Made by a program: the position numbers and the translations under genes. From positions 258,606 to 322,605 of the forward strand of contig JAFWHH010000008.1 of assembly GCA_017512025.1 (NCBI GenBank): a DNA stretch of 64,000 bases. The letters are read 5' to 3'. The stretch's first letter is position 1. Every line of letters starts with the position of its first letter. Shown piece after piece: positions 3,527 through 62,491 of this stretch. The stretch is from Clostridia bacterium. Lineage in GTDB: Bacteria > Bacillota > Clostridia > TANB77 > CAG-508. The notes beneath the pieces were generated by a model. The model saw only the letters and a list, made by a program, of their open reading frames with translations. It searched no databases and was not told where the DNA came from.

Positions 3527-3706
3527 TTCTATTCCCTCCTTTGCCAATTAGTATGTATCTATATCATATACTAATGTATTGACGTTTTTAAATATCACTT
3601 TAAGAGTATACTAGTTTTTTGGCTTTTTGTCAACAAAAATTTCAAATAAATGTTATAACTACGTTTTTTTCATAACATCATAAAAGTTCTAAAAATACAG
3701 AAAGAC

Positions 3707-3735
3707 TTTACATAATTTGTATATTGTGCTATAAT
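3707..3735 (+). promoter_or_regulatory. Sigma-70-type promoter of island A (TTTACA-17-TATAAT)
   Basis: TTTACA at 3707-3712, 17-nt spacer, TATAAT at 3730-3735, about 70 nt upstream of the 3809 start. Confidence 0.55.
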
Positions 3736-3808
3736 AATCTTGTAACGCCAAATGCAGGGTGTTATTCGCATACTTTCAGTATGACTTTATTGAAAGGAGT
3801 GATACTTA

Positions 3809-4045
3809 ATGCTGTACGTCTGGTTAGCAGTGCTGTCGGTATTGGTCATCGTATTGATGCTGACAGATTCAAAGCAGATCAAGAAGGCAGCGTGTAGCGC
3901 TGGCGGTCTCGTTATCGCCATTAGTGCGTTTGTGCATTTCTTCCAAGAGTGCACATTCACCGGCCCGGTGATTTCACTGGCTGGTTGCACCGTTGCCGTT
4001 ATTGGTATGACGGCTCTCACAGTCTACCTCTTCGTCAAGAAGTGA
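3809..4045 (+). CDS. Island A: small Cys-containing membrane protein (78 aa, about 3 predicted TM segments), unknown function
   Basis: RBS AAAGGAG lies 8 nt upstream. The sequence is hydrophobic (MLYVWLAVLSVLVIVLML..., GGLVIAISAFVHFF, VAVIGMTALTVYLF). GC is about 47% (28/60 counted over the first 60 nt) against AT-rich flanks. A G5...C5 hairpin plus T8 lies at about 4079-4137. Confidence 0.6.
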   Translation: MLYVWLAVLSVLVIVLMLTDSKQIKKAACSAGGLVIAISAFVHFFQECTFTGPVISLAGCTVAVIGMTALTVYLFVKK

Positions 4046-4207
4046 GTGGATTGATGAGCATTAAGTTATCCGAACACAGGGGGTCTTGCATTAAGAATGT
4101 CTGGTGAAATATCCAGTCTCTTCCCCCTTTTTTTTATGTCAAAATAAATTTATATATATTATTAAGTATTAAAAGCTATCTATTTTCGTAGATAGCTTTT
4201 TTGGTAT

Positions 4208-4242
4208 AAAAAAAGAGGAATGTGCATCACACATTCCCCTCT
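4208..4242 (-). terminator. Rho-independent terminator of island B gene
   Basis: Minus strand reads GAGGGGAATGTG-TGATG-CACATTCCTC followed by T7. Confidence 0.75.
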
Positions 4243-4255
4243 CATGGATATCTCA

Positions 4256-4693
4256 TCATGGTTCCATAATGTCCTCCTCGACATTTTTGTCTTTTTCCTG
4301 ATCAGGAACATATCGAAAGATTATGGTGTTTGGTCTCTTACGAACTCGCAATTTATTTTGAGTTTTCCGAAAACCAGCCTTGCGGACAGTTGAGAACAGC
4401 TTGGCATTCCTTTCTTGTGCTGGAACACCAATTTCAGCTAAGATACCCCTTTGCTCGTAAATCCACTGGGACAATTGATTGAGTGCTTCAACAACTGTCT
4501 CTTGATTTACGACCTTTTTGGCTCCTCGTTTCTCACGTATAATCGATAAGTACATCTTACCATTTTGCTGTACATGAATAACTGCAATCCACTTTTCGTC
4601 CTTTGGACTTAGTGTCCACAGCTCTTCACCGTACCCATCGACATGAGTCCGAGTAATCGCCCAGTTTTCATTGTTAATTCTGGGCTTTTCCAT
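4256..4693 (-). CDS. Island B: hypothetical 145-aa protein with a basic C-terminal region
   Basis: RBS AAAGGAGGG lies 6 nt before the ATG at complement 4691-4693 (MEKPRINNENWAI...). GC-rich relative to flanks. No family recognised. Confidence 0.6.
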   Translation of the reverse strand: MEKPRINNENWAITRTHVDGYGEELWTLSPKDEKWIAVIHVQQNGKMYLSIIREKRGAKKVVNQETVVEALNQLSQWIYEQRGILAEIGVPAQERNAKLFSTVRKAGFRKTQNKLRVRKRPNTIIFRYVPDQEKDKNVEEDIMEP

Positions 4694-4828
4694 GCTCTTC
4701 CCTCCTTTCAAGGAAAGTTCATCTTATTATATCATATATTATGTAAATTTGAAAGCTTTTTATTAAAAATTATCATTTTTTTAGAAATACAGCATATTAT
4801 ATATAAATTACTATGCTGAGGTGTTTTT

Positions 4829-6676
4829 ATGTGTGGATTTACTGGATTTTGTAATTTAAAGAAAAAAATAACTTCTAAAGATAATATTTATAATATGAAT
4901 AGTAGTCTTTCCTATCGTGGACCAGATGATAGTGGTTATTACTATGAAGAAAATGTAGTTCTTGGGCACAATAGATTAGCTGTCGTTGATCCTGCTGGTG
5001 GTATACAACCAATGACCGAAAGAATCTCTGATAATACATATACAATCGTCTATAATGGACAAATATATAATACAAATGAAATTCGTGAGGAGCTTATTCA
5101 AAATGGATTTAAATTTACTACCAAATCAGACACGGAAGTGTTACTAAAAGGATATATATTCTGGAAAAAAGAAATCGTAAATAAAATAAATGGAATATTT
5201 GCTTTTGCAGTATGGGATAGCTCCACTAAAGAATTATTCTTAGCTAGAGATCATTTTGGTGTTAAACCACTATTTTATACCATTATTGATAATACATTGG
5301 TCTTTGCATCAGAAATAAAAGCTCTATTTAAGTATCCTGGTATAAGTCCTATTCTTGATGAACAAAGCATAGCAGAGCTATTTGGTATTGGTCCTGCCAG
5401 AACAAGCGGTACTGCTGTTTTTAAAAATATATATGAGTTGAAGCCAGCAAGTTTTGCAATATTTAATGAATCAGGTTTTCACGTAGAAAAATATTGGAAA
5501 CTTCATTCAAAACCACATACTGATAGCTTAAATCAAACAGCTGATAAAATTAGATTTTTATTAAAAGATTCAATCGAAAGACAACTCGTTTCTGATGTTC
5601 CTTTGTGTGTATTTCTATCTGGTGGTCTAGATTCAAGTATAATTGCCCATTATGCATCTAATAATTATAAAAACAACCATAAGGGACAGCTAAATACTTT
5701 TTCAGTTGATTATATAGATAATGATAAAAACTTTCAGAAAACAGATTTTCAGCCTAATTCAGATAAGTATTATATAAATATCATGTCATCAAAATTAAAT
5801 ACTAATCATCAAACTATATTTTTAGATACCCCTGATTTAGCAAATGCTCTTGAAGATGCAATGCTTGCTCGTGATTATCCAGGTATGGCTGATGTTGATT
5901 CTTCCTTACTTTTATTTTGTAAAGAAGTTAAGAAATATTCAACAGTTTCTCTAACTGGTGAATGTGCTGATGAAATTTTTGGAGGTTATCCATGGTTCTT
6001 TAGAGCTGATAGCTTAAATAGTAAAACATTCCCATGGTCTATTGCAATTGAAGAAAGACAAAATCTTTTAAATTCATCTATCTCTCAAGAAATAAATCTT
6101 AGAGAATATATTGATTATAGATATTTAGAGTCTTTAAAAGAAGTAGAAATATTAGATTCAGATTCAATGGAAACAGCAGAAAAAAGAAAGATTTCCTATC
6201 TTACTCTTAACTGGTTTATGCAAACACTTCTTGATAGGTCAGATAGAATGGCTATGTATAACGGATTTGAAATTAGAGTTCCATTTTGTGATTATAAATT
6301 AGCAGAATACGTATGGAACATTCCATGGGAAATGAAAGCTCTGGGTGGTCGTGAAAAAGGACTACTTCGATATGCCATGAAAGATATTCTTCCTGATGAA
6401 ATAGTTGAACGTAAAAAAAGTCCATATCCTAAAACATGGAATCCAACTTATACAGACTGTGTTAAAAATAAATTATTGGAGATTATGAATAAAGAAAACT
6501 CACCAATTAATTCTTTATTAAATAAAGATAAAATATTAGAAATAATAAATACAAATGGAAAGTCTTTTACAAGACCATGGTTTGGTCAATTAATGACTGG
6601 TCCACAACTTATGGCGTATCTTTGCCAAGTAAATATGTGGCTTGAACATTATAATCCTAGAATTGAACTATCCTAA
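4829..6676 (+). CDS. asnB: Asparagine synthase (glutamine-hydrolysing)
   Basis: N-terminal MCGF (Ntn Cys2) and the SGGLDSS PP-loop. 615 aa. Confidence 0.9.
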   Translation: MCGFTGFCNLKKKITSKDNIYNMNSSLSYRGPDDSGYYYEENVVLGHNRLAVVDPAGGIQPMTERISDNTYTIVYNGQIYNTNEIREELIQNGFKFTTKSDTEVLLKGYIFWKKEIVNKINGIFAFAVWDSSTKELFLARDHFGVKPLFYTIIDNTLVFASEIKALFKYPGISPILDEQSIAELFGIGPARTSGTAVFKNIYELKPASFAIFNESGFHVEKYWKLHSKPHTDSLNQTADKIRFLLKDSIERQLVSDVPLCVFLSGGLDSSIIAHYASNNYKNNHKGQLNTFSVDYIDNDKNFQKTDFQPNSDKYYINIMSSKLNTNHQTIFLDTPDLANALEDAMLARDYPGMADVDSSLLLFCKEVKKYSTVSLTGECADEIFGGYPWFFRADSLNSKTFPWSIAIEERQNLLNSSISQEINLREYIDYRYLESLKEVEILDSDSMETAEKRKISYLTLNWFMQTLLDRSDRMAMYNGFEIRVPFCDYKLAEYVWNIPWEMKALGGREKGLLRYAMKDILPDEIVERKKSPYPKTWNPTYTDCVKNKLLEIMNKENSPINSLLNKDKILEIINTNGKSFTRPWFGQLMTGPQLMAYLCQVNMWLEHYNPRIELS

Positions 6677-6713
6677 AACTAGCTGAGGGGAACCCAGCTA
6701 TGCTAGATTCCCC

Positions 6714-6908
6714 TCATTTTGAAAGCTTATCAATTTCATTTTTCAGCTTTGTAATTTTTCGAATATAGTCGTTCAGAATCCTTCTGTGTTCAGGATTTTC
6801 TGTCTGAGAACTGTTTTCGAGAAAGAGATCAAACTTTGCTTGAAGTTCATTGAGCTGAGCTTTCAAAATTGCTATTCTTTTTTCGTCTATGTTCCGCTTC
6901 TTTCTCAT
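6714..6908 (-). CDS. Island C: 64-aa predicted coiled-coil protein, unknown function
   Basis: RBS AAAGGAGG lies 7 nt before the ATG at complement 6906-6908 (MRKKRNIDEKRIAILKAQLNELQAKF...). The longer ORF-track start at 7025 would run through the promoter and leader. Confidence 0.5.
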   Translation of the reverse strand: MRKKRNIDEKRIAILKAQLNELQAKFDLFLENSSQTENPEHRRILNDYIRKITKLKNEIDKLSK

Positions 6909-6996
6909 ACAGAAACCTCCTTTATGAGAATCACGGTAAGCCCTGAGCAAGAGCTTAGTTATACCCTGGCAGGTGCTCGTCCTCCTGCAGTTATTG

Positions 6997-7025
6997 ATTA
7001 TACTACGTTTTGAGCGTTTTTTCAA
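6997..7025 (-). promoter_or_regulatory. Promoter of island C (TTGAAA-17-TATAAT on minus strand)
   Basis: Minus strand reads TTGAAA (7025-7020), 17-nt spacer, TATAAT (7002-6997). It is followed by a GC-rich leader of about 85 nt. Confidence 0.5.
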
Positions 7026-7040
7026 TGTTATTTTGTGAAT

Positions 7041-7580
7041 TTATGCTTCTTCAGCTGGTGGATTAATAATATTTTGAATATCTTCGTCATTTTTTATCTC
7101 ATCAGCAACATATTCAAAAGCCTTTTTATTCTGCTTGATTGCAGCAATCGCTACATCTTTATCAGCTCTCAATCTATGGCTTGCATACTTTAGAATAATC
7201 GCCTTATTTGATACTGCAGCAAGTACCACATCTTTATCATCTCTTAGCTTTTGGCTTGCATAATAAAGTACTTGTCCATCTCTTTCAGCGGCCTTTAATA
7301 CCACATCTTTATCATCTTGAAGCTCTTCACTTGCATAGCAAAGAACCCACCCTTTTACTTCAACAGCAGCTAACAATATATCTTTATCATTCTTTAATTC
7401 ATCGCTTGCAAATTCTAAAGCTCCGCCATCACATTTAACAGCTTCCATTACAAGCTCTTTATCATTTTTAAGTTCATCTGATGCCCACTCTAGAGCTAAT
7501 CCATCTTTTTTTACATACTCAAGCATCTTTTCTCTATCGCTTGCAAATTGTTTTACTTCTTCTATTTCTGATTCTTCCAA
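7041..7580 (-). CDS. DUF4116-type repeat protein
   Basis: Five to six tandem units of about 30 aa of the form A(S/D)xxL(K/R/Q)(N/D)DK(D/E)(V/I)VL(A/K)AV..(D/N)G..L.YAS, which I recognise as the DUF4116 repeat. Confidence 0.65.
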   Translation of the reverse strand: MEESEIEEVKQFASDREKMLEYVKKDGLALEWASDELKNDKELVMEAVKCDGGALEFASDELKNDKDILLAAVEVKGWVLCYASEELQDDKDVVLKAAERDGQVLYYASQKLRDDKDVVLAAVSNKAIILKYASHRLRADKDVAIAAIKQNKKAFEYVADEIKNDEDIQNIINPPAEEA

Positions 7581-7660
7581 TTTATCTCACCCAATATATC
7601 TATATCACAAAATAAAAAAAAGTACAAAAGAATTTGCACTTTTGTACTTTTTTTATTAAA

Positions 7661-8050
7661 TTAGTCGTCAATATCGAATCCCATTGATTTAGCAAATTTT
7701 TCAATATAATCTCTATCGATATCATCAAGATCTTGATCTAATTCTTTAGCAAGATCTTTTCCTTTAATTGTTACAGTAACTTTTTTACCGCTCTTTTTTA
7801 CTTTTCCAACATCTTCGTATGTATCTTTAGCACTATCATATGCATCTTTTGCCTCATCTTTGTCTTTATATGTTGCTGTCATAGTCATTGTTTTTAATCT
7901 GTCTTTGCTATCAAATGTAGCAACTAATTTTACTTTATAGTCGTCTTCTTTTATAGTTCCAACTAATTTCTTTCCTCCACATCCTGTTAATGCTAATAAT
8001 GCCATAACTACTATAGCTATTAGACTAGTAATTTTTAATAATTTTTTCAT
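7661..8050 (-). CDS. Lipoprotein, paralog 1
   Basis: Signal peptide with lipobox LTGC. Roughly half of positions look identical by eye to the neighbouring ORF 8170-8559. Confidence 0.75.
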   Translation of the reverse strand: MKKLLKITSLIAIVVMALLALTGCGGKKLVGTIKEDDYKVKLVATFDSKDRLKTMTMTATYKDKDEAKDAYDSAKDTYEDVGKVKKSGKKVTVTIKGKDLAKELDQDLDDIDRDYIEKFAKSMGFDIDD

Positions 8051-8169
8051 AGTAAAAAAACCTCCTTATATTTTATACACTTATTATACAAAAAAATAAA
8101 ATAAATGCAAATATATTCTATAAAAAAAGCACAAAAGAATTTACACTTTTGTACCTTTTAATTTTAAAA

Positions 8170-8559
8170 TTAGTCTTCGATATCATATCCCATGAATTTT
8201 AATAATTGTTTCATGTTATCTTTAGTAAGTTCATCTTCATCAGCTCCAGTTTGTTTAGCAAAATCTTTTGCTTTAACTGTAACTGTGATTTTCTTACCAC
8301 TTCTCTTAATCTTATATCCTTCAGCATCTTGATCTTTCATCTCTTTGTATGCATCTTTTGCATCACTAGCTGAATCATAAGTATATGTAATTACTAATTT
8401 TGTTAATTTATCATCTTTATTGAATGATGCAACAACTTTAGATTTGTTACCATCTTCCTCCATAGTACCAACTAATTTGTTTCCACCACATCCTGTTAAA
8501 GCTAATATTAACATAGCAACTACAGCTATAAGACTAGCAATTTTTAATAGTTTCTTCAT
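8170..8559 (-). CDS. Lipoprotein, paralog 2
   Basis: Start set at MKKLLKIASL (RBS GGGAGGGGG 8 nt upstream), which parallels the paralog 1 start. Lipobox LTGC. Confidence 0.75.
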   Translation of the reverse strand: MKKLLKIASLIAVVAMLILALTGCGGNKLVGTMEEDGNKSKVVASFNKDDKLTKLVITYTYDSASDAKDAYKEMKDQDAEGYKIKRSGKKITVTVKAKDFAKQTGADEDELTKDNMKQLLKFMGYDIED

Positions 8560-8629
8560 TCGTTTCACCCCCTCCCTGTTTATTATAAATATAAATTATA
8601 ATAAATCAAATACATTATATACAAAATAA

Positions 8630-8869
8630 TTAAACACAGTCAACTTTATATTCGAAATCTTCCATGAAAGGAAACATCTCAAATATTCTTTTATGTGTAA
8701 CGATTTGCATTCTTGGTTGAGGATTCTTTGGATGCTCTGTTATAAGTTTTTGTGTATAACTATTTTCTGATGTCTTAAACACAACATATCTATTTCTTAC
8801 GTATGTAAAAAATATCTGATATCCATTATCTAAGTCTCTTTCAAATTTTTCAAAAGTATAATCGTTCAT
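8630..8869 (-). CDS. Hypothetical 79-aa protein
   Basis: ORF with host-like AT-rich composition, directly upstream of ligA. No family recognised. Confidence 0.45.
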   Translation of the reverse strand: MNDYTFEKFERDLDNGYQIFFTYVRNRYVVFKTSENSYTQKLITEHPKNPQPRMQIVTHKRIFEMFPFMEDFEYKVDCV

Positions 8870-8881
8870 GTCTTCACCCTT

Positions 8882-10882
<2,001 letters not shown>

Positions 10883-10982
10883 TTATCCTCTTTTCTATCG
10901 TATAAATAAAAAATACCACAAGGAAATAATTATAAATTTCCTTGTGGTTATTCTATCATCAAATTAATAAATTATCTACAAT

Positions 10983-11591
10983 TTACATATCTTTTAATAA
11001 ATCTTTTCCATTCTTTAGATAATCCCATCCAGAGAATATTGTAGCTACTACTGAAATAAAGATTGTAACTGTACTTATAATATTAATTGCAAGAGGAACA
11101 CCTGAAAGATTTCCACTGAAGAAACTTCCAAAAGCATTCATATCGATAAATGCAATTATTAAACCAACCATTTGTGTAACTGTTTTTAATTTGCCCCACA
11201 TAGAAGCTGCTACAACTTTACCAGAATTCTCAACTTCAAGTAATCTGTACCCAGATACTAAAAATTCTCTAAATAAAACTATTACTGGAATCCATGCAGG
11301 TAATCTTCCTGCTGCAACTAACATTATCATTGCAGTTAATACTAATATTTTATCTGCTATTGGATCTAAAAACTTTCCAAAAGTTGTAACTTGTTTTCTT
11401 GATCTTGCAATATATCCATCTAACTTATCAGTAATTGATGCAATAATAAATATTAAATTTATAAGCACCCATGCCATTGGTACTGACACAGTAACAATAT
11501 TTAGTTCACCATCTAATGGAAGATATGGTATTATAACCATTATAGGTACTAATAAAATTCTAAATACCGTTAATTTATTTGGTAAGTTCAT
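10983..11591 (-). CDS. pgsA: CDP-diacylglycerol--glycerol-3-phosphate 3-phosphatidyltransferase
   Basis: CDP-alcohol phosphatidyltransferase motif DKLDGYIAR...G...DPIADK. Membrane protein. Confidence 0.85.
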   Translation of the reverse strand: MNLPNKLTVFRILLVPIMVIIPYLPLDGELNIVTVSVPMAWVLINLIFIIASITDKLDGYIARSRKQVTTFGKFLDPIADKILVLTAMIMLVAAGRLPAWIPVIVLFREFLVSGYRLLEVENSGKVVAASMWGKLKTVTQMVGLIIAFIDMNAFGSFFSGNLSGVPLAINIISTVTIFISVVATIFSGWDYLKNGKDLLKDM

Positions 11592-11609
11592 TTCTAATTC
11601 TCCTTTAAT

Positions 11610-11930
11610 TTATATAATATCATTATTTGCACTTAATTTAATTATTAAGTCCATGTTGTCATCATTCGCTGCTTTATTTTTTCGTATCATTCCACATTTT
11701 TTACACTTAAAAACAATTACATATCCTTTTTTAGGACTTATTTCAATTCCAATCGGCTCTAATATTCCATGGCAATCTTCACTTCTATCGCCAGGATTTA
11801 TATCAACATGTTTTGAATGTAAACAAAATGGACAATGGTTTCTGCATGTATAGTTTAATTTTGGAACATGTTTTCCACAATTTTCACACACAAATTCCTC
11901 ATCAATTTTTGTGAATAGACTTTTTTCCAT
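11610..11930 (-). CDS. RNHCP domain protein
   Basis: Contains the literal CRNHCPFC motif plus additional CxxC pairs. Confidence 0.7.
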   Translation of the reverse strand: MEKSLFTKIDEEFVCENCGKHVPKLNYTCRNHCPFCLHSKHVDINPGDRSEDCHGILEPIGIEISPKKGYVIVFKCKKCGMIRKNKAANDDNMDLIIKLSANNDII

Positions 11931-11954
11931 AAAAAGCTATCATCCTTTCATATT

Positions 11955-13586
11955 TTAATAGAAAATGCTTCCACCTAAAAACTCTCTTAGTAGAGAATGT
12001 TGTGGCACATACATTGCTGGTATTGATTCAAAATACTCAAGCATTGAAATTAATTTTTTAGCTTCTGAATATTCTGGATGGTCATCAGTTATCTCTCTTA
12101 ATAATGGTAATGCAAAATCTCTAAGTACTGCTAGCTCATATATTAATGATGAGTTGAACATACTATCAGCTTGCTCTTGGAATGGGAAAATATTGTTTTC
12201 TTCTCCCCTGTTTACTGAATCCCACATTTGTAATGTGTGTAATGCACTATATCCTCTAAATTGGTGATCTCTAACAATTCTTCTTATTAATCTAGAGTCT
12301 GTTGTTGATATTCTATTGTTGTGATCTAAGTTAAGTACTGTTAAACAACTAATATAGATTTTGTATTTTTGCTCCTTTGGAATTAATGGTGTTAGCTTAT
12401 CGTTTAAGCAATGAATTCCTTCGATAACAAGAACTTGGTCATCTTTAAGTCTCATTTTTTCACCATTATATCTCTTAGTTCCAACTTCAAAATCAAATGT
12501 TGGTACATCTATTTCTTCACCATTTAATAGCTTTAATATATGCTCATTAAATAACTTTGTATCAATAGCCTCTATACACTCGAAATCGTATTCTCCGTTT
12601 TCATCTTTTGGATTCTCTGGACGCTCAACAAAATAATTATCTACAGACATTGTTACTGGTTTTAATCCATTTAGTCTAAGTTGTATTCCAAGTCTTTTTG
12701 CAAACGTTGTCTTTCCAGATGATGAAGGACCAGCTATTAATATAACTTTAACTTTATCTCTTTTAATAATATCATCTGCAATTAATGCAAGCTTCTTCTC
12801 ATGAAGTGCTTCATCAAGCAATATATACTCAAGAGTTTTATTTTTCTTTATTACTCTGTTAAGCTTATACAATGTATGAATGTGTAAAAACTCATGTAAG
12901 TTTTCATATTCATCAAGTGTTTCAAGTAGTTTTTTATTTTCTTCAAATACTGGTAATTTAGTAGAATCCTTTTTACTTGGATATCTAATTAATATACCAC
13001 CATGATATTTCATAATTTCATATATCTTTGCGAACCCTGTTGAGATTGGTAAAACACCATAAAAATAATTGTAATAGTCTTCACAGAAATATAAGCTTAC
13101 TGTATCTTTCTTTCCATACTCAATTTGTAGCTTTCCTTTTTCATTTTTTTCTACGCTATAGAACTTTTTAGCTTCTTCCTTACTCATCTCTTTTTTTACA
13201 ATTGGAAGATTTTTATCTACAATTTCTTTGAATTTTTTATTTATGTTCTCAATCATCTCATCTGTTACTTCTGCATCTGTTACTTCACAAAGCATTGAAT
13301 TTGATAATTGGAAATTAATTTCTGTTTTTGCATCAGGATATAGACTTTCAAAAGCCATAGTTAATATATATATAAGACCTCTTATGTATATACGTCTTCC
13401 ATCTCTGTCTGAAATATCTAAAAGTTGAATTGTTCCGTCTTTAGTTAATTCAAATCCTAGTGACTTAACCTCGTTATTAAATTTACAAGCAATTATATGA
13501 TTGCTCTCAATTTCTTCTTTTAATAGGTCAATTACCTTAATATTTTCAGTCTTAATGACTTGGTCTTTGTATTTTATTTCTATCAT
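11955..13586 (-). CDS. Uridine/nucleoside kinase family protein with N-terminal TGS/ThrRS-like region
   Basis: P-loop AGPSSSGKTTFAKRL within a PRK/uridine-kinase-like C-terminal half. Start set at MIEIKYKD (RBS GGAGG). Confidence 0.7.
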   Translation of the reverse strand: MIEIKYKDQVIKTENIKVIDLLKEEIESNHIIACKFNNEVKSLGFELTKDGTIQLLDISDRDGRRIYIRGLIYILTMAFESLYPDAKTEINFQLSNSMLCEVTDAEVTDEMIENINKKFKEIVDKNLPIVKKEMSKEEAKKFYSVEKNEKGKLQIEYGKKDTVSLYFCEDYYNYFYGVLPISTGFAKIYEIMKYHGGILIRYPSKKDSTKLPVFEENKKLLETLDEYENLHEFLHIHTLYKLNRVIKKNKTLEYILLDEALHEKKLALIADDIIKRDKVKVILIAGPSSSGKTTFAKRLGIQLRLNGLKPVTMSVDNYFVERPENPKDENGEYDFECIEAIDTKLFNEHILKLLNGEEIDVPTFDFEVGTKRYNGEKMRLKDDQVLVIEGIHCLNDKLTPLIPKEQKYKIYISCLTVLNLDHNNRISTTDSRLIRRIVRDHQFRGYSALHTLQMWDSVNRGEENNIFPFQEQADSMFNSSLIYELAVLRDFALPLLREITDDHPEYSEAKKLISMLEYFESIPAMYVPQHSLLREFLGGSIFY

Positions 13587-13754
13587 ATGTGACCTCCATT
13601 TCAAATTTATCTATATTAATTCTATGAGTCTAAACTCTTGAATATAGTTAAATTAGCAAGCTTATTTTATCGCTATATTTTTTTTAAGTCAAGTAATTGA
13701 CAATATAATTGACGTGTATTATTATATATTTATTATGAAAAGGAGGATTTTATT

Positions 13755-14294
13755 ATGAGCGATGTAAAAAATGAAAATGTTGAATTTGGTAAAGAGCCAA
13801 TCGGAGACAACAAGAAAAAAATAGCCATGATTGGAGGAATCGTAGCAGCAGTTGTTGTTTGTTTATTTGTGATTATTTCTCTAATAAGTGGTGGATATAA
13901 AACTCCAATAAAGAATTATTTTAACGGATTACAAAAATGTAATTCAAAAACATATTTAAAAGCTTTCCCAGAATTCATGAAAGAAGATCTTGAAGACAAA
14001 TACTCTGATGAGTATCTAGAAAAGAAAAAAGATAATTTAGAAGATACTTATGGAGACAAAGTAAAATATTCATACAAAGTTGTTGATAAAACAAAATTAA
14101 CTAAAGATGAAATAAAAGATGCTAAAAAAGCATTAGAAAAATTATATAAAGATGAAAAAATAAACTTAAAAGAAGGATACCAAGTTTGCGTTAAAGTAAC
14201 AATAAAAGGATCAGATAAGAAAGCAACTTCTTATGAGACATTTGTTGTATACAAACTTAATGGAAAATGGGTAACATTCCCATCATCTTTATAA
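13755..14294 (+). CDS. Membrane-anchored hypothetical protein
   Basis: One N-terminal TM segment (IAMIGGIVAAVVVCLFVIISLI) followed by a Lys/Asp-rich soluble domain. RBS AAAGGAGG. Confidence 0.55.
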   Translation: MSDVKNENVEFGKEPIGDNKKKIAMIGGIVAAVVVCLFVIISLISGGYKTPIKNYFNGLQKCNSKTYLKAFPEFMKEDLEDKYSDEYLEKKKDNLEDTYGDKVKYSYKVVDKTKLTKDEIKDAKKALEKLYKDEKINLKEGYQVCVKVTIKGSDKKATSYETFVVYKLNGKWVTFPSSL

Positions 14295-14315
14295 TCTAAA
14301 TATTGATTATATAAT

Positions 14316-14358
14316 AAAAAAATAAAACAGCTAAACTAAGTTTAGCTGTTTATTTTTT
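14316..14358. terminator. Bidirectional rho-independent terminator
   Basis: 11-bp stem AACAGCTAAAC/GTTTAGCTGTT with a 3-nt loop, an A-run on the left and a T-run on the right. Lies between convergent genes. Confidence 0.8.
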
Positions 14359-14400
14359 ATTCCCTTTTATTCAAATAAATTTAAATATTTAACCCAAAAA

Positions 14401-17064
14401 TTATTGTAACTTTTCTTTAATTTTAGCAAGTGTATTTAGAGCTTCAATTGGTGTTATTTGATTAAAGTCTATCTTATCAATCTCGTGAGCTACCTCTGCT
14501 ATTTTATAGTTGTTTATATCAATATTTTCTGGAATCATTTTATAAACATTCTCAGCTGATTCAGCTACCTCACTTACTTCATTATTGTTTTCATCATCAA
14601 TAGTAAATTTCTTAGCCATTATACTTTTACGTTCCAATGATTTAAGAATTTCATTTGCTTTTTGAGTAACTACTTGTGGAACACCAGCAAGTCTTGCAAC
14701 ATGTACACCATAACTTTCATCTGTTCCCCCATCAACAATTTTTCTTAGGAAGATAATATCTTCTCCTTTTTCCTTAACAGCAACTGAATAGTTTTTAACA
14801 CCCTCTATCTTATTTTCAAGCTCTGTTAATTCATGATAATGGGTTGCAAATAATGTTTTAGCTCCGCATTTTTCTTTATCAGCAATATACTCAGCAACAG
14901 CCCATGCAATTGAAAGCCCATCATATGTTGAAGTTCCTCTACCAATCTCGTCTAAGATTACTAAACTTTCATTAGTAGCTTCTTTTAAAATTGTAGCTAC
15001 TTCCATCATCTCAACCATGAATGTACTTTGTCCCATACTTAAATCGTCAGAAGCACCAACTCTTGTAAATATCTTATCTACAATACCAATCTTAGCTGAT
15101 GTTGCTGGAACAAAAGATCCAATTTGTGCCATTAATGTAATAAGTGCTACTTGTCTCATATATGTTGATTTACCTGCCATATTTGGACCAGTGATTATCG
15201 CTAATCTGTTATCATTTTTATCTAAGTATGTATCATTTGGAACAAAGTTATTTGAAGAAATCATCTTTTCAATAACTGGATGTCTTCCCTCTTTAATATC
15301 AATTATTCCTGAATTATCAACTACTGGTTTAGCATAGTTTAAATCTTCTGCTACCATTGCAAATGATGCAATAACATCAAGCTCTGATATTAAACTTGCA
15401 GTTCTTTGAATTCTTTGAATTTGTTTTTCAATAGATTCTCTAACTTCTGTAAATGCATTATATTCTAGAATAACAACTTTTTCTTCAGCACCTAGTAATT
15501 GGTTTTCAAGTTGTTTTAACTCTTCAGTTATATATCTTTCTGCATTTGCCAAAGTTTGTTTTCTAATATATCTATCTGGTACCATTGATAAGTTTGATTT
15601 GGTTACTTCAATAAAATATCCAAATACCTTATTATAACCAATCTTTAAATTCTTAATACCTGTTTCTTCTTTTTCTCTTGCCTCTAGATCAATAAGCCAT
15701 TTCTTACCATCTGTTGTAGCTAGTTTTAGTCTATCAATTTCCGGATTATATCCCATCTTGATAAGACCACCATCTTTAACACCAATTGGTGGATCCTCCA
15801 CAATAGATTTTTCTATGATTTCATATACATCCTCTAATGTATCCATGTTCTCATAGATATTTTTAAGAAGTCCTGCTCCGGTTGTTGCTAATATATGTTT
15901 AATGTCTGGTAATTGTTTTACTGAGTTTTTAAGAGATATTAAATCTCTACCATTTGCATTTCCATATGCAATCTTACCGGCTAAACGTTCAATATCATAT
16001 ACCTTCTTAAGAGCATCAATAATATCTCCTCTTAAGATTATACTGTCTTTTAATTCTTCAACAGCATCAAGTCTTTCCTTGATTTCAGTCTTATCAATAA
16101 GAGGATCATTTATCCAACGTCTAAGCATTCTACCACCCATTGATGTAGAAGTTTTATCTAATACCCAAAGAAGAGTTCCTTTTTTAGATTTATCTCTCAT
16201 CTTCTCTGTAAGCTCTAAATTCCTTCTAGCATTAATATCAAGAGCCATATAACGAGTTGTATTATAGATCTTAATTGTATTGATATGATCTAGTCCCGTT
16301 TTTTGTGTATCTTCTAAATATTTCAAAAGAGCATTTATTGCATAAATAGCAAGTTTTTTCTCTGATAATTGTTTATCACCAATTTGTTCATTCTTATCAT
16401 CAACAATTGAATACATTCCAGATAAAAGCTCATATTCTCCATCAAAGAATTCTTCATCCTCTTTAGAAATATATGTTTTAAATCTTTCTTTAATCTTTTC
16501 TATCTCAACTGTGCTATTGAACATTAAATCAGAAACAATAATCTCAGCTGGTGAATATCTTGATATCTCGTCTAATAATCTTGCAAAATTGTTATGTTCA
16601 ACAATTTGAGTTGCGTTAAACTCTCCTGTTGAAATATCACAAACCGCAATACCAAAATATATACCACTTTTGTAAATTGACATTATATAGTTATTTTTCT
16701 TTTCTTCTAGTAAGTTTGATTCAATAACTGTTCCTGGAGTTACAACTCTAACTACTTCCCTTTTAACTATTCCTTTAGCAGTTTTTGGATCTTCAACTTG
16801 CTCACAAATAGCAACCTTATATCCTTTTTCAATAAGTTTAGCAATATAACTTTCAGCTGCATGATAAGGAATACCTGACATTGGAGCACGCTCTGCTTGT
16901 CCACAATCTTTTCCTGTTAAAGTAAGTTCAAGCTCCCTAGAAACAACCTCTGCATCCTCATAAAACATTTCATAGAAGTCACCTAATCTATAGAAGAGTA
17001 CGCAGTCATTGTATTCTTTTTTCGTATCTAAATAATGTTGCATCATCGGTGAAAATTCAGCCAT
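14401..17064 (-). CDS. mutS: DNA mismatch repair protein MutS
   Basis: 887 aa. Walker A GPNMAGKSTYMRQ. N-terminal mismatch-binding region MMQHYL..K.....LFYRLGDFYE. Confidence 0.95.
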   Translation of the reverse strand: MAEFSPMMQHYLDTKKEYNDCVLFYRLGDFYEMFYEDAEVVSRELELTLTGKDCGQAERAPMSGIPYHAAESYIAKLIEKGYKVAICEQVEDPKTAKGIVKREVVRVVTPGTVIESNLLEEKKNNYIMSIYKSGIYFGIAVCDISTGEFNATQIVEHNNFARLLDEISRYSPAEIIVSDLMFNSTVEIEKIKERFKTYISKEDEEFFDGEYELLSGMYSIVDDKNEQIGDKQLSEKKLAIYAINALLKYLEDTQKTGLDHINTIKIYNTTRYMALDINARRNLELTEKMRDKSKKGTLLWVLDKTSTSMGGRMLRRWINDPLIDKTEIKERLDAVEELKDSIILRGDIIDALKKVYDIERLAGKIAYGNANGRDLISLKNSVKQLPDIKHILATTGAGLLKNIYENMDTLEDVYEIIEKSIVEDPPIGVKDGGLIKMGYNPEIDRLKLATTDGKKWLIDLEAREKEETGIKNLKIGYNKVFGYFIEVTKSNLSMVPDRYIRKQTLANAERYITEELKQLENQLLGAEEKVVILEYNAFTEVRESIEKQIQRIQRTASLISELDVIASFAMVAEDLNYAKPVVDNSGIIDIKEGRHPVIEKMISSNNFVPNDTYLDKNDNRLAIITGPNMAGKSTYMRQVALITLMAQIGSFVPATSAKIGIVDKIFTRVGASDDLSMGQSTFMVEMMEVATILKEATNESLVILDEIGRGTSTYDGLSIAWAVAEYIADKEKCGAKTLFATHYHELTELENKIEGVKNYSVAVKEKGEDIIFLRKIVDGGTDESYGVHVARLAGVPQVVTQKANEILKSLERKSIMAKKFTIDDENNNEVSEVAESAENVYKMIPENIDINNYKIAEVAHEIDKIDFNQITPIEALNTLAKIKEKLQ

Positions 17065-25994: not shown

Positions 25995-26000
25995 ATATCA

Positions 26001-26036
26001 AAAAGGAGCCCATGGTATTTGCGGGGCTCCCTTTTG
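26001..26036. terminator. Bidirectional hairpin terminator
   Basis: GGAGCCC-12 nt-GGGCTCC flanked by A4 and T4/T5. Lies between convergent genes. Confidence 0.65.
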
Positions 26037-26138
26037 GTCTCGATTACACTCAATTGCCTGGGTTTAACCCCTGAGCGAAACCAACACTGCCTCAGTTTGA
26101 CGTTAATCTCTCTGAGTATCCGAGTTTAGCGTAGTTTC

Positions 26139-26435
26139 TTATCCTCCTTCTGCAAGATCTTCCACGACGGGCCAACTCTTTTTACGATTCTTAAGCCATG
26201 AATTGCGGAACGCCTTCGCACCAGACTTGGATCTGAATTCTGCAAAGGACTCCACTTGCTCAAGGTCTACAGGCCGTGTACCAACACGACATGCACCACA
26301 CTTCAAGGCAGCCTGCCTTCCAGCATTCGCCTCGTTGTCGTCGGTCGAACGGAAATTGACGATACTTCCTGCCTCATTCTGTTCAACCTTCTTCTGAGAG
26401 GGATTGGGGTTTTTGCCAGACTTTTGCTTTGCCAT
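26139..26435 (-). CDS. Island D: hypothetical 98-aa basic protein
   Basis: RBS AGAGGAGG lies 10 nt upstream of the ATG. GC-rich (about 50% by eye). MAKQKSGKNPNPSQKK... No family recognised. Confidence 0.55.
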   Translation of the reverse strand: MAKQKSGKNPNPSQKKVEQNEAGSIVNFRSTDDNEANAGRQAALKCGACRVGTRPVDLEQVESFAEFRSKSGAKAFRNSWLKNRKKSWPVVEDLAEGG

Positions 26436-26525
26436 GTGTCATTTACCTCCTCTTTAGAGAATATGAACTCATCATAACACATTAATTGGCGATGCACAAT
26501 GCTTCTAAAAAAATAATTTGTTTTT

Positions 26526-44036: not shown

Positions 44037-44066
44037 TTGACATTTACATAATACAGATGATATAAT
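44037..44066 (+). promoter_or_regulatory. Promoter of island H (TTGACA-18-TATAAT)
   Basis: TTGACA at 44037-44042 and TATAAT at 44061-44066. The spacer begins TTTACATAA, the same as the island G promoter. Confidence 0.55.
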
Positions 44067-44132
44067 CATTCCGTTAAACAAGAGCCAAGCGCTCTCTGCC
44101 CGTCAACATATGCCTTGATAAGGAGGATGTTT

Positions 44133-44495
44133 ATGGAAATAACACGGAACCCGTTCAAATCACTTTGTAAGGTGACAAAGGACAACAATACCATTCCCCC
44201 GGAGTTTGCAGTCTGCAGAGTTTTCAAATATATACGATTGATAAAAAATATGTCTCAGCAACAGATTGCAGATGCTAAAACACCGGACGGAAAATGTATC
44301 AGTCAGTCATACATTTCAAAAATTGAACAGATGCAAATCACCCCCACATTTGACACAGCTTTTCTGTTCTGCCAACTGACAAAAATCAATCCTTGTGATT
44401 TTCTTGACTGTGTTGCTAAAACTATGAACATGACAAATCTTCAGGCTGCCGAATATATTGGCAAAAAGATTATGAAGATTTTAATGGAAGAATAA
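44133..44495 (+). CDS. Island H: XRE/Cro-type HTH protein
   Basis: RBS AAGGAGG lies 5 nt upstream. IRLIKNMSQQQIADAKTPDGKCISQSYISKIEQ resembles an HTH_XRE domain with an insertion. GC-richer than the flanks. Confidence 0.6.
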   Translation: MEITRNPFKSLCKVTKDNNTIPPEFAVCRVFKYIRLIKNMSQQQIADAKTPDGKCISQSYISKIEQMQITPTFDTAFLFCQLTKINPCDFLDCVAKTMNMTNLQAAEYIGKKIMKILMEE

Positions 44496-44520
44496 CCCGG
44501 CAACAATCACATAGGATTCC

Positions 44521-44558
44521 AAAAAAGAGATTCGGTACAACTGGCCGAATCTCTTTTT
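44521..44558. terminator. Bidirectional terminator shared by island H gene and dnaJ
   Basis: GAGATTCGG-9 nt-CCGAATCTC with A6 on the left and T5 on the right. Confidence 0.8.
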
Positions 44559-44574
44559 GGTTCTATAATTATTA

Positions 44575-49318: not shown

Positions 49319-49448
49319 ACTGTGTATATATTATATCCAAAAGGATGGATTGTCAATACTAAATTTAAGTATTTTTGTGAATTTTTTGTGAAATAAAAAA
49401 ACACCCCTTTCTAATGCTTACATGCATCAAAAAAGGGTATCTTCCGGC

Positions 49449-50167
49449 TTACAGATTTCTTTCGCCGTACGGGTATCCAGCATAAACTACGTTATCCATG
49501 GGAATAATCAGTGCGGGCATATCCTTGATTGTCGAAATAAGGTTTGCATTGAAGCCATCAACGAGTACGTTATTTGCTGTTACTGTTACCGGCTTAATCA
49601 AATATCCATATTGTGCAACATCTTCAAGCATACGCATGTACGAGCCACCTTTTATCTCCCCAATTCGATAATTGACCCATATGCTCCTGGGACTGCTGTC
49701 AGCGAGCCACGCTGCAGGCAAACTTGGTATATCGCCTTTTCTTCTCTTCTCTTGCTTTGCCAAAAGCGCCGCTCTAAACTTTTCCAATAAATCTTGATTC
49801 CCCGTTCTAATTACTTCCTGATATACTTTCAGGAATTCATAAAACTCATCTTCGAACATATTTCCCTTTCGGGAATTACACGCCGTACAAGCCGGCCGCA
49901 AATTGTTCGTAATGGTCGGACCACCAAAGTCCTGCGGAATTAAATGATCCATTGAAATTTTAGAAAAGTACGCCTGGTTATTGCACTGAGTTTCGTGACT
50001 TCTCAGTTTCCGGTGACAGAAATAACATTCATCGTCGCCAAAAATCTTGTATGTAAGTGCATACATAACATCTTTGAAATCACCCTTTTTATAGAGATAG
50101 AGCGTATCACCTTTGACTTCAGCAGAATCACCAATCACAAAGTCATCGCCTGGAAGTAGTATCTCCA
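49449..50167 (-). CDS. Island I: HNH endonuclease domain protein with C-terminal ParB/Srx-like region
   Basis: RBS GGGAGGAA lies 5 nt before the ATG at complement 50165-50167 (MEILLPGDDF...). HNH core CYFCHRKL...DHLIPQDFGGPTITNNLRPACTACNSRKGN. The C-terminal ...LIKPVTVTANNVLVDGFNA resembles a ParB N-terminal fold lacking DGHHR. Clearly GC-richer than the neighbours. Confidence 0.65.
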
Positions 50168-50229
50168 TGTTGATTCCTCCCCTCATCAATGTACTACATT
50201 CATGAATTTTCTACCGCTTCCTAGAAGCA

Positions 50230-50257
50230 ATTTTAACATATAAAAAAGTAGAGTCAA
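50230..50257 (-). promoter_or_regulatory. Promoter of island I (TTGACT-16-TAAAAT) followed by two palindromes
   Basis: Minus strand reads TTGACT (50257-50252) and TAAAAT (50235-50230). Downstream are GCTTCTAGGAAGC and TCATGAATGTA-G-TACATTGATGA. Confidence 0.45.
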
Positions 50258-60058: not shown

Positions 60059-60216
60059 ACAAAACCTCCTTTTCTGTTTTAATTTCTCTTATTAATAAAC
60101 AGAAAAATCTAGTGTGATTATATCTAAATAATTAATGATTTACAACACTATATATTTAAAAATTTTTTGCATAGAAAAAGAGCCAGATAGTAAAACTATC
60201 TGACTCCTCACGTATT

Positions 60217-60528
60217 TCACCAAAAAAGATATATTTTATAATCTTGCAAGCCTAATTTCTCAAGCTTCTTTTGTACATCTTTTTTCGTGTAATACTGACC
60301 TGCCGCAATTGCACACAAAGGCTCGTTTCCGCACCCAACTTGAATGGCTTTTTTCTTCATGATTAAAAAATCTTTTGCTGATCCACAACCATACCAAGTC
60401 CAGTCCTCATTTGGGAATTTCTTTTTATACTCCCAAATTATATCGCGTGCTTTTCCCTCGTGGCCATTTCCCTCATTGGCGAAAAATTTTCCGTCCCAGA
60501 TAAATCCTCTGGGCATCTGCTTGCTCAT
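60217..60528 (-). CDS. Island J: hypothetical 103-aa protein
   Basis: ORF with RBS GAAGGAAG. GC-richer than the flanks. Terminator hairpin GAGTCAGATAGT/ACTATCTGGCTC plus T-run at about 60180-60213. No family recognised. Confidence 0.5.
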   Translation of the reverse strand: MSKQMPRGFIWDGKFFANEGNGHEGKARDIIWEYKKKFPNEDWTWYGCGSAKDFLIMKKKAIQVGCGNEPLCAIAAGQYYTKKDVQKKLEKLGLQDYKIYLFW

Positions 60529-60547
60529 ACTAAATCACTTCCTTCGT

Positions 60548-60586
60548 CTAGTTGTTAGTCGAATACATAGTGTTTGCATAAACCAT
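60548..60586 (-). CDS. Candidate 12-codon upstream ORF/leader peptide (MVYANTMYSTNN) in island J leader
   Basis: The strong SD GGGAGG lies 8 nt upstream of the ATG at complement 60584-60586. The stop is 19 nt before the main ATG. Promoter TTGCAT-17-TATAAT lies at 60649-60621 (minus). Confidence 0.3.
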   Translation of the reverse strand: MVYANTMYSTNN

Positions 60587-60704
60587 GCTAATTACCTCCC
60601 ATCATTGTGGCATACAGGGTATTATACTCTAAAATTGATTATTATGCAATAATGCTGTTATTGAAAATAAAAAAGATTGGCTATGCCAATCTTTTTATAA
60701 TATA

Positions 60705-61403
60705 TTATCTATCTTCGTTATCATCACTTTGATCTTGTTCTGCAGGTGCTTCTTGATTTTTCTTTGCATTTGCGTGGACATCAATTTGTGGTTGTCTGCT
60801 CTTAAATTCTTCTTTTAATTCTTTCCATTCATCACTCAACATTGTTGCTACTTTTAAATTTGCTTGATATGGATTTTTAAAATGTTCTTGGAACGCTTCA
60901 TCAGCTTTACCAACTTCAAATCCAAGCTCTCTAAAACCATCTTGTAATTTTTTTATTCTTAATATATGAGAAACAGCAAATACATTTTCTACACCCTCTA
61001 TTTCTCCGGATTCAATCTGCATACTTAATTGTTCAAGTGCATCTACTAAATATGGACCCATATTTCTTATATCTGTTGTGCTTACATGTTCTGGTATAAC
61101 ATGTAGTGCTATTGTATCTTGTTTACTTCCTGCAATGTTATACGAAACCATATCATTTAATTCGATAAATCCTGTACCTACTAGCTCATGATTTAATCTG
61201 TTGTCTACCCAATTAATAAAATCTTGAACACCGGCGTTCTCTCCAAGTGATCTAGTTGCAATTTCCGCAAACTGCTCCTCAGATATTCCTTCTATTTTTA
61301 ATATATAACCTTCAATTTTTTCTATTCTGTGATCATCTTGCGTCTCAGTCATGATACCTTGTAGTGTTTTAATTGCATCATTCTTACTTAACATACTAAT
61401 CAC
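60705..61403 (-). CDS. Hypothetical 232-aa protein with acidic C-terminal tail
   Basis: ORF only, with host-like composition. Terminator AAGATTGG/CCAATCTT at about 60670-60697. Confidence 0.5.
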   Translation of the reverse strand: MISMLSKNDAIKTLQGIMTETQDDHRIEKIEGYILKIEGISEEQFAEIATRSLGENAGVQDFINWVDNRLNHELVGTGFIELNDMVSYNIAGSKQDTIALHVIPEHVSTTDIRNMGPYLVDALEQLSMQIESGEIEGVENVFAVSHILRIKKLQDGFRELGFEVGKADEAFQEHFKNPYQANLKVATMLSDEWKELKEEFKSRQPQIDVHANAKKNQEAPAEQDQSDDNEDR

Positions 61404-61571
61404 CTCACTATAATTATACCATATTTCTAATAATATTTAAAATCTGGTCTCACCATTAAAAATAATTATGCTAAAAACGCTTTATAGTACTTGATTATTG
61501 GCTTTATCTGTTGTATACTAGAATTTGTTCGTAGTAAGCCTATTTGTAATGACAGGAAGGAGTGAAAAATC

Positions 61572-61814
61572 GTGCCAGACCTTGAAATTGTTGGACCTCA
61601 CTTTATCGTGTGTCCACACTGCGGTTACCGGTTTGATTTATCCAAACACAAAGTGAACAAGAATACGCATGGCGAGAAGTTTATCTCTTGCCCGAGACCC
61701 GGTCAGAGCCTTTTTGATTCAGATAGAAAGAAGCCTGCCTGCGGTCAGTACATCGCACTTACCGATGATTTAGAAGTGGTACCTGAAAAGGCACCAATCC
61801 AAATGACCGGATAA
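61572..61814 (+). CDS. Island K: 80-aa zinc-ribbon protein (GTG start)
   Basis: RBS GGAAGGAG lies 8 nt before the GTG at 61572. CPHCGYRF...CPRPG...ACGQY Cys pairs. GC-rich. Promoter TTGATT-17-TATACT at 61491-61519. Confidence 0.5.
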   Translation: MPDLEIVGPHFIVCPHCGYRFDLSKHKVNKNTHGEKFISCPRPGQSLFDSDRKKPACGQYIALTDDLEVVPEKAPIQMTG

Positions 61815-61849
61815 TTCCTGGAGGGGGAGCACAAGGTTGTGCTTCCCCT

Positions 61850-62491
61850 CTATTGGTTTATTAATTCAATAATTCTTAGCTTATTATCTATTTCTTTATT
61901 ACTCCTAATTCTAATGTATTGCACATATATTAATCCACATATTATGCCCATGTTATGATATTCTAGAATTACTACACTACACACTACTAACAATAATATA
62001 AATATTACATTCGTTGTTTTTTTTACGCACTTGTATGCACTACCTTCTCCCCAAAAAATAGATAATATGCTCTTAAATATTCTTCCACCATCTAGTGGAT
62101 AGATAAATAATAAATTAAAAATCATAATACTAAAATTTATGTAACAAATGCTCTCATTAAAACATAATAAAAGAGCTATTATTCCAACTATAAAGTTAAA
62201 TAATGGCCCCGCTAAATAAATTATTATTTTCTTTAATTCTGCTAAGTTCCCTTTCAAAATCTTCTTATTATAATCGTCTATTTTATACCTAAAAGATATA
62301 GAACACCCACTGGGTTTTATTTCAAAATGCGTTGGTATTACACCCAATATTATTCCTACTATTAGATGTGCTATTTCATGAAGAAAGATAAAAGCCAAAA
62401 AAAGTAAATACATTTTGTGTTGATTTGTTATATAAAACATTGCTAAAAACAGCAATATTTTTATATCAAATTTAATGCACATATCATACAA
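61850..62491 (-). CDS. M50 site-2 metalloprotease, SpoIVFB-like
   Basis: HEIAHL zinc motif in a polytopic membrane protein, with a later DGGR motif. Follows an M23 gene as in spoIVFA-spoIVFB. Confidence 0.7.
   Translation of the reverse strand: MYDMCIKFDIKILLFLAMFYITNQHKMYLLFLAFIFLHEIAHLIVGIILGVIPTHFEIKPSGCSISFRYKIDDYNKKILKGNLAELKKIIIYLAGPLFNFIVGIIALLLCFNESICYINFSIMIFNLLFIYPLDGGRIFKSILSIFWGEGSAYKCVKKTTNVIFILLLVVCSVVILEYHNMGIICGLIYVQYIRIRSNKEIDNKLRIIELINQ

Follow-up and report, generated by a model that had tools for sequence, protein, structure and literature searches.

The window analysed here is a stretch of 64,000 nucleotides (nt) from contig JAFWHH010000008.1 of an uncultured Clostridia bacterium, in which an AT-rich set of core genes is interrupted by short, GC-richer segments, labelled islands A to K after an earlier note on the same DNA. 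Overall GC content of the window is 30.9%, and these segments are distinct in sliding-window GC across it. They most likely represent eleven unrelated, self-contained transcription units at operon boundaries, ten predicted to be protein-coding and one a small-RNA candidate, and their flanks are housekeeping genes: rpmF, asnB, ligA, dnaJ, hrcA, fmt, and hydrogenase genes. The units with their predicted promoters, coding sequences (CDS) and terminators are listed below, followed by a tRNA gene that lies among them.

3707-4135, + strand: unit A; promoter 3707-3735 (TTTACA-17-TGnTATAAT), CDS 3809-4045, then a hairpin with a T-run
4208-4753, - strand: unit B; promoter 4753-4726, CDS 4256-4693 (145 amino acids, aa), terminator at about 4241-4208
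6684-7025, - strand: unit C; promoter 7025-6997, CDS 6714-6908 (64 aa, coiled-coil-like by eye), terminator 6716-6684
26000-26500, - strand: unit D; promoter and ribosome-binding site (RBS) at about 26500-26440, CDS 26139-26435 (98 aa), an element in the 3' untranslated region (3'UTR) at 26082-26040, terminator 26031-26000
29896-30075, + strand: unit E, non-coding; promoter 29896-29924 (11/12 consensus positions), about 145 nt with four hairpins, the last being the terminator at 30031-30066
32292-32797, + strand: unit F; promoter 32292-32320, CDS 32402-32797 (131 aa, N-terminal membrane helix by eye)
33037-34430, + strand: unit G; promoter 33037-33065, CDS 33137-34348 (403 aa), terminator 34403-34430
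44037-44570, + strand: unit H; promoter 44037-44066 (12/12, with TG), CDS 44133-44495 (120 aa), terminator hairpin in common with dnaJ
49398-50257, - strand: unit I; promoter 50257-50230, CDS 49449-50168 (239 aa), terminator 49443-49398
60175-60649, - strand: unit J; promoter at about 60649-60621, CDS 60217-60528 (103 aa), terminator at about 60206-60175
61491-61852, + strand: unit K; weak promoter 61491-61519, CDS 61572-61814 (80 aa), terminator 61819-61852
32885-32971, - strand: tRNA-Leu(CAA) gene (ARAGORN and Rfam), between units F and G

The GC-rich feature is real and statistically sharp. GC content at the third codon position (GC3) ranges from 0.11 to 0.26 (median 0.176) in about 57 core genes of the window and from 0.38 to 0.63 in the ten coding islands A, B, C, D, F, G, H, I, J and K, with robust z scores of 4.6-10, and the distribution is bimodal, with no gene falling between the two groups. 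The codons CGG, CTC, CTG and CCC have a relative synonymous codon usage of about 1 in the islands as against 0.00-0.06 in the core genes, and island codon usage is near flat, such that the comparison of base composition and codon usage with the flanking genes, proposed in the earlier note as a check, yields a clear difference. The GC content of 45-50% estimated there by eye applies to only four islands when computed over whole islands (A, 0.51; D, 0.50; E, 0.46; K, 0.46), the others lying at 0.33-0.43 (G, 0.43; B, 0.42; I, 0.42; J, 0.39; H, 0.37; F, 0.36; C, 0.33). Eleven of the twelve islands proposed stand, ten as open reading frames (ORFs) by their GC3 plus the non-coding E, and the twelfth, at 7041-7580 (- strand; GC 0.35), is rejected; it encodes a Pfam DUF4116 repeat protein (E 4.5e-54), and since its GC3 is an ordinary 0.19 and it is syntenic in relatives (79% identical in L007-L010 and 76% in L030, related loci and contigs being cited here by L number) it is a core gene and not an island. 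Coordinates were good overall, although the start codon of I is the ATG at 50168 and not 50167, and the earlier note overlooked the tRNA-Leu gene, which accounts for the peak at 32.8-33.0 kb and which likewise lies between F and G in L088.

GC3 outliers are dense, at 10 of about 70 window genes (14%), in comparison with GC3-raised outliers at 4.3% of 2203 genes (median length 83 aa) in 116 related AT-rich loci. Six of the eleven units are on the lagging strand, compared to 6 of 57 core genes (Fisher p 0.0025), and this random-looking orientation fits insertion irrespective of strand. Long antisense ORFs inside G, A, D, and J were set aside; they have no consistent reading frame and are attributable to the scarcity of stop codons in GC-richer DNA.

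The assignment of a promoter, RBS and terminator to each island is largely borne out by consensus matches. Of the nine promoter matches that scored highest in the scanned stretches (11-12 of 12 positions), six are directly upstream of A, C, E, F, G (each 11/12) and H (12/12), and B and I score 10/12 with an extended -10. Promoter-like sites in total are no more frequent than in shuffled sequence, and the promoter matches are therefore supportive only. A scan located strong terminator hairpins after C, E, G, I and K; for A, B, D and J the hairpins were recognized by reading the sequence.

As the earlier note had stated, there are no signs of an integrase, transposase, inverted repeats, or target duplications: no repeat family or common ends linking the units were found among the islands, no target duplication was seen in alignments with empty sites, and there is no recombinase or integrase among the window proteins scanned. 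There is likewise no attC-like common inverted-repeat element among the units, no unit is present more than once within the window, and none of the features of insertion sequences, miniature inverted-repeat elements or transposons (terminal inverted repeats, target-site duplication, transposase, multiple copies) was found for the units. A match of the long ORF in C to IS110 was rejected at 17 bits against a cut-off of 140. Nor do the units look like classical genomic islands, as each is a single gene, repeats and an integrase are lacking, and only F and G flank a tRNA gene.

An exhaustive HMMER search of 1.84 billion representatives, using a concatenation of seven island proteins as query, contributes to a picture in which each unit protein has its own small family, conserved over its full length. 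Pfam recognizes only H (an Xre-type helix-turn-helix, HTH) and I (an HNH nuclease), and PADLOC and PHROGs gave only generic HTH matches for H and HNH matches for I. The full-length family conservation, together with confident structural models for J and B (predicted local distance difference test, pLDDT, 93 and 82, respectively), indicates that these are real genes, and judged by their sequences the ten ORFs are real and mutually unrelated genes.

Unit A encodes a protein of 78 aa with three predicted membrane helices and has the highest GC3, 0.63; the exhaustive search gave a family of four representatives with 37-56% identity. A homolog with GC3 0.41 is present at the matching site in L183, where the protein is 49-54% identical as compared with 99% for rpmF, and the site is empty in L007, L008 and L030. 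We note that in a different species, L009, the rpmF-asnB gap contains a GC-rich (0.44-0.46) ORF of 96 aa (9239-9529, + strand) that is hydrophobic by eye and whose similarity to A is marginal (E 0.003 over 23 residues). We also note that a contig from another sample (L001, 1-9657) is 99.95% identical to window positions 3466-5344 but, inside rpmF, is joined to a sialic-acid and glycosyltransferase gene cluster; the junction at window position 3466 reflects either a genuine rearrangement or a chimera in the metagenome contig. Unit B (GC3 0.41) belongs to a family of five representatives with 40-50% identity, with no Pfam match and no PDB sequence match; the predicted fold of its modelled product resembles GNAT acetyltransferases, which Foldseek matches at a template-modelling score of about 0.5 (E 1.7e-5, 11-16% identity). 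A B homolog divergent from asnB in L180 is 48% identical and has GC3 0.36, the AsnB N-terminus being 80% identical. For unit C (GC3 0.34-0.39) two representatives were found, with homologs 51-67% identical; in L182 the homolog (GC3 0.31) adjoins the DUF4116 gene and is 51% identical versus 93% for DUF4116. The neighborhood also includes a tandem pair of orphan genes at 7615-8568 (- strand), paralogs of 129 and 132 aa with duplicated terminators, which are AT-rich like the host and are missing from this site in L007, L008 and L030; being AT-rich yet lineage-restricted, they show that lineage-specific inserts are not all GC-rich.

Unit D (GC3 0.48) has a family of four representatives, and orthologs with unchanged flanking genes and GC3 0.47 are present in L177 and L178, that in L177 being 49% identical versus 61-83% for the flanks. 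The promoter, 5'UTR and 3'UTR element of D are conserved in both, and in both loci the 43-nt 3'UTR element (GGTTTCGCTCAGGGGTTAAACCCAGGCAATTGAGTGTAATCGA, 26082-26040, - strand) is better preserved than the coding region of D; no Rfam family matches it, and it may be a small RNA motif. Unit E, by contrast with these coding units, contains no ORF with an RBS and is strongly folded, with a minimum free energy of -62.3 kcal/mol (z -9.5), suggesting an orphan small-RNA candidate. Only the tRNA-Leu passes the gathering threshold in a scan with Rfam 15, with nothing credible at E <= 1, and the proposal that the islands are known structured RNAs was rejected on the grounds that Rfam at gathering and E-value thresholds gave only the tRNA. 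Between 23391 and 29828, o303 (LysR), o169, o355, D, a 490-aa zincin-like gene (MPTase-PolyVal), o63, o262 and o198 lack a counterpart in L095-type relatives beyond o294, and this segment may constitute a larger variable region around D and E.

Unit F (GC3 0.38) has three representatives and a homolog of 66% identity and GC3 0.34 at the matching site in L088. Three homologs of G (GC3 0.49), found in a search separate from the exhaustive one, are 67-75% identical, have GC3 0.43-0.44, and are syntenic, upstream of a metallo-beta-lactamase gene in L087, L088 and L092; F and G in these loci are 66-69% identical in comparison with 85-95% for the flanks. The G translation shows, by eye, a signal peptide and a tandem pair of repeats, each about 100 aa long, with a dockerin-like motif below the Pfam cut-off. 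Sister species have a 316-aa form of G without window positions 33735-34021, corresponding to about one repeat unit. The block HD-o82-F-tRNA-Leu-G (31211-34430) is missing between a beta-lactamase-fold gene and o294 in L095-type relatives (L095, 12223-12595). In L176 (3632-4276; Fmt 93% identical) an HD gene adjoins fmt where the window has a Thg1-like gene, with a Thg1-like gene just past it, and local gene order thus appears to differ between sister species.

Unit H (Pfam HTH_3, E 7.7e-8; GC3 0.41) has a homolog with GC3 0.48 at the matching site in L174, 65% identical versus 82-89% for the flanks, and the site is empty in L172 and L095. The product of I contains an HNH endonuclease domain (Pfam HNH_5, E 2.9e-11; 43.6 bits against a cut-off of 27.5); IscB and Cas9d were rejected as identifications, with matches far under their cut-offs. 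The order Thg1-HNH-hrcA is kept in L172 and L174, where the HNH gene has GC3 0.28-0.33 as opposed to 0.42 in the window, and its product is 51% and 66% identical respectively, compared with 93% and 83% for HrcA. Unit J (GC3 0.41) has the largest family, with twelve representatives including two-domain forms of 227-240 aa, and in L172 a 240-aa gene occupies the matching site, its C-terminal half being 42% identical to J as compared with 88% for NuoE; the confident model of J has no PDB match, and the sole structural match, to a gut siphovirus ORF, is borderline. Between its promoter and its start codon, J has a 12-codon leader ORF (60586-60548, - strand; MVYANTMYSTNN) that carries an RBS of its own, GGGAGG. 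Unit K (GC3 0.46; three representatives) encodes a Cys4 zinc-ribbon-like protein whose zinc-ribbon matches are below the Pfam cut-off, and its homolog in L181, also with GC3 0.46, adjoins an M50 peptidase gene as in the window and is 51% identical versus 62% for the M50 protein.

Comparison with relatives places these units at fixed sites. The closest GTDB species are metagenome-assembled Clostridia genomes and Clostridium sp. CAG:492, in which AsnB is 75-77% identical to that of the window and the order plsY-der-rpmF-asnB-DUF4116-ligA-mutS is kept without A, B or C; the gaps in the rpmF-asnB-DUF4116 interval of L007 are 232 and 94 nt, versus 1282 and 365 nt in the window, and no members of the A, B and C families are present in 80 species loci with every family member as query. 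L095-type relatives are without F and G as well as H. All ten genes have a homolog at the matching site in some other AT-rich species, with 42-69% protein identity compared to mostly 80-99% for flanking genes, and GC3 of 0.28-0.48 compared to 0.12-0.26 for their neighbors. Conservation in synteny in all relatives, which the earlier note had raised as a sign of ancient core genes, is therefore true of sister species only, as the next-closest species have empty sites. The relatives have their own GC3-raised, lineage-specific single genes at other gaps, for example L172 o207 and L174 o139. Where the window has none, there are single-gene inserts (L172, 5729-7114; L174, 6671-7090 and 16549-16806) between a hydrogenase gene and priA in both relatives and between dnaK and dnaJ in L174; the inserts in L172 and L174 include a DUF4160/DUF2442 pair, and several have raised GC3. 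A literature search found nothing on the base composition of this clade.

We lean, with moderate confidence, to the interpretation that the units are separate, old acquisitions of self-contained promoter-gene-terminator units that are now drifting toward host composition. Each unit would have arrived on its own, transferred horizontally from a GC-richer source into the common ancestor of the window species and a few sister species; illegitimate or flank-assisted recombination would have inserted it, with no dedicated cassette machinery. The comparisons show that the units were then inherited at fixed positions and that their proteins evolve two to five times faster than those of their neighbors. 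Their synonymous sites would be part-way in decay to the AT-rich equilibrium of the host, which is consistent with the data but not proven. Some lineages have probably lost a unit or swapped in a divergent allele by ordinary homologous recombination, as presence is patchy and trees disagree with the flanks: similarities of H and I conflict with those of their flanks, and the A allele is far older than its flank. The suggestion of many independent captures of foreign DNA is thus the best fit, with the amendment that the captures are old, having diverged same-site homologs and empty sites beyond these.

Decay of this kind can be examined quantitatively. With (u+v)T of 1.05-2.3 from flank divergence, the ancestral GC3 implied by neutral decay is a feasible 0.41-0.81 in eight of ten comparisons. 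For G, the host equilibrium is not rejected by a three-taxon two-state likelihood fit (twice the log-likelihood difference, 2dlnL, 1.1), which gives an ancestral GC3 of about 0.6-0.7 and the shortest branch for the window lineage; this also explains why the GC-richest copy is usually that of the window. A fit for I (2dlnL 1.6) is equally indecisive between the models, and these two-state fits are poor on the flanks, yielding an equilibrium of 0.26 there, probably owing to rate variation between sites. Parsimony counts in G of 37 GC-to-AT versus 36 AT-to-GC changes were rejected as a sign of stable composition, because at these branch lengths plain decay, through errors of the parsimony method, is expected to give about 34 to 28. 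Incomplete decay after an old transfer is therefore enough to account for the data, though it is not proven.

Several observations weigh against it. Neutral decay is strained by K, for which the implied ancestral GC3 of 0.95 is barely feasible, and by D, for which 1.25 is impossible, both estimates being noisy and near saturation, and GC3 is about equal in both lineages at about 50% protein identity for D (0.48/0.47) and K (0.46/0.46). Ten separate events are required, each with a host-type promoter and terminator. No donor was found, phage and plasmid records being without match and IMG/VR without relatives of B, J and G, and all seven of the seven family members with readable DNA are in AT-rich genomes at the matching site. 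Finally, the island coding regions fold better than synonymous shuffles, with a mean z of -2.9 versus -1.0 for 55 core controls (p 0.003); the most stable are B (z -6.35) and J (z -6.47), the core-control minimum being -4.8, and this excess folding hints at constraint at the RNA level.

A rival reading takes the units to be long-standing native, clade-specific genes whose transcripts, in coding region and UTRs alike, are held GC-rich by selection in the face of AT-biased mutation; what is selected could be the stability or structure of the mRNA, or control of expression via host-rare codons, a mirror image of the TTA/bldA control in GC-rich Streptomyces. In its favor are the GC3-raised homologs of all ten genes at the matching site in other species, the steady GC3 of D and K for which neutral decay then needs ancestral values of 0.95-1.25, the excess folding, the failure to find a donor lineage, and the extension of GC-richness to non-coding parts (the D 3'UTR element and the whole of E). 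We nonetheless consider it fairly unlikely, as the likelihood fits favor no higher equilibrium for G or I, the balanced parsimony counts are those expected from parsimony error under decay, codon usage is flat with no patterned preference, GC3 varies widely between orthologs (A, 0.63 versus 0.41; I, 0.42 versus 0.28), the next relatives have genuinely empty sites, and random strand orientation fits insertion better. It is distinctly unlikely that the units are hypervariable allelic cassettes under balancing or arms-race selection (for example with immunity, defence or surface functions), in which ancient divergent alleles are swapped by homologous recombination between related lineages with the conserved promoter and terminator as arms. 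Unit A illustrates its appeal: rpmF and the promoter in L183 are about 99% identical at the nucleotide level (95% at third positions) and the A promoter, RBS and terminator are conserved, whereas the A CDS has only about 57% nucleotide identity, with synonymous sites diverged as well as the protein. Moreover, I is nearer to L174 than to L172 although the flanks indicate that L172 is closer, H is present in L174 but not in L172, and the synonymous "age" of A, H, F and G (versus L088) is above that of the flanks. Yet synonymous divergence is about that of the flanks for C, D, J, K, I (versus L174) and G (versus L087), which fits vertical descent, there is one close relative per locus, on short contigs, and the high GC is unexplained by allele exchange alone. 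A combination, in which a clade-specific, position-fixed and fast-evolving class of small genes (plus one small RNA) has its transcripts actively kept GC-rich, with some exchanged as divergent alleles via promoter and terminator arms, seems to us unlikely.

The earlier note had also entertained a single family of cassettes that bring their own promoters and move by a mechanism not yet described, to which the common architecture of promoter, one gene and terminator and the density of 10 in about 70 genes lend some appeal. This is not supported and we regard it as very doubtful: the units have no common ends, repeats, recombination sites or target duplications, no recombinase was found in the window, the units encode unrelated protein families, none is in more than one copy within the window, and each is at a fixed, species-conserved position, as would not be expected of a recently mobile family. 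An assembly chimera, contamination or engineered inserts, the last of the possibilities raised there, would be conceivable for a window from a metagenome-assembled genome, and contig L001 does join differently at the left, inside rpmF. It has virtually no probability given the independent data, and is refuted for A-C in particular. An ENA ruminant-gut scaffold matches window positions 1-16,676 at 100% identity, and four Logan assemblies from other runs show the same complete identity over A-C and across their junctions. Proteins D and J are on 16 contigs each, one being a 418.7-kb NCBI contig, and diverged homologs occupy the corresponding junctions in other species.

If the interpretation as old, separate acquisitions is correct, the window is a clean and dense example of a small, AT-rich gut genome gaining accessory genes singly at operon boundaries. 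From this uncultured lineage of ruminant-gut Clostridia it also yields eight uncharacterized small-protein families, including J with a confidently predicted fold lacking a PDB match, and, in E, a candidate orphan small RNA. If instead the GC content is maintained, gene-specific selection would be holding GC3 near 0.45 against a genome equilibrium near 0.17, which bears on what sets bacterial GC content.

Several known systems invite comparison. Integron cassettes are also single-gene units of diverse function, but the units described here have their own promoters, are scattered and not arrayed, and have neither an attC-like site nor an integrase. GC-rich structured RNAs in AT-rich genomes are the basis of screens of GC-rich intergenic regions for new non-coding RNAs, and E resembles them in being GC-rich, strongly folded, and bounded by a promoter and a terminator, as does D in its conserved 3'UTR element, although the other ten units are protein-coding and no Rfam family is matched.

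A closer parallel is with phage "morons", which, according to Hendrix and co-workers' studies of lambdoid phages, are reportedly single extra genes with their own sigma-70-type promoter and intrinsic terminator. The window units similarly consist, by consensus matches, of a promoter, a single ORF and a terminator wedged between functional neighbors, their base composition differs from that of the flanks, they have no mobility gene of their own, and they are present in some relatives and absent at the matching junction in others, with empty junctions for A-C in L007, L008 and L030, for F, G and H in L095, and for H in L172. They differ in lying between chromosomal housekeeping operons and not in a prophage, in that no phage relatives were found, and in being old enough to have same-site orthologs in sister species.

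Horizontally acquired ORFans, or "genomic islets", are likewise short, lineage-confined, deviant in composition and fast-evolving, and lie between core genes in random-looking orientation. ORFans are usually AT-richer than their host, as in E. coli (PMC3514957), whereas the window units are GC-richer, as expected with a host at 31% GC, and their density of 14% of genes contrasts with 4.3% in related loci. The process thus appears to be an ordinary one, a known kind of genome flux, and it is the density with which it has acted in this window that is unusual.

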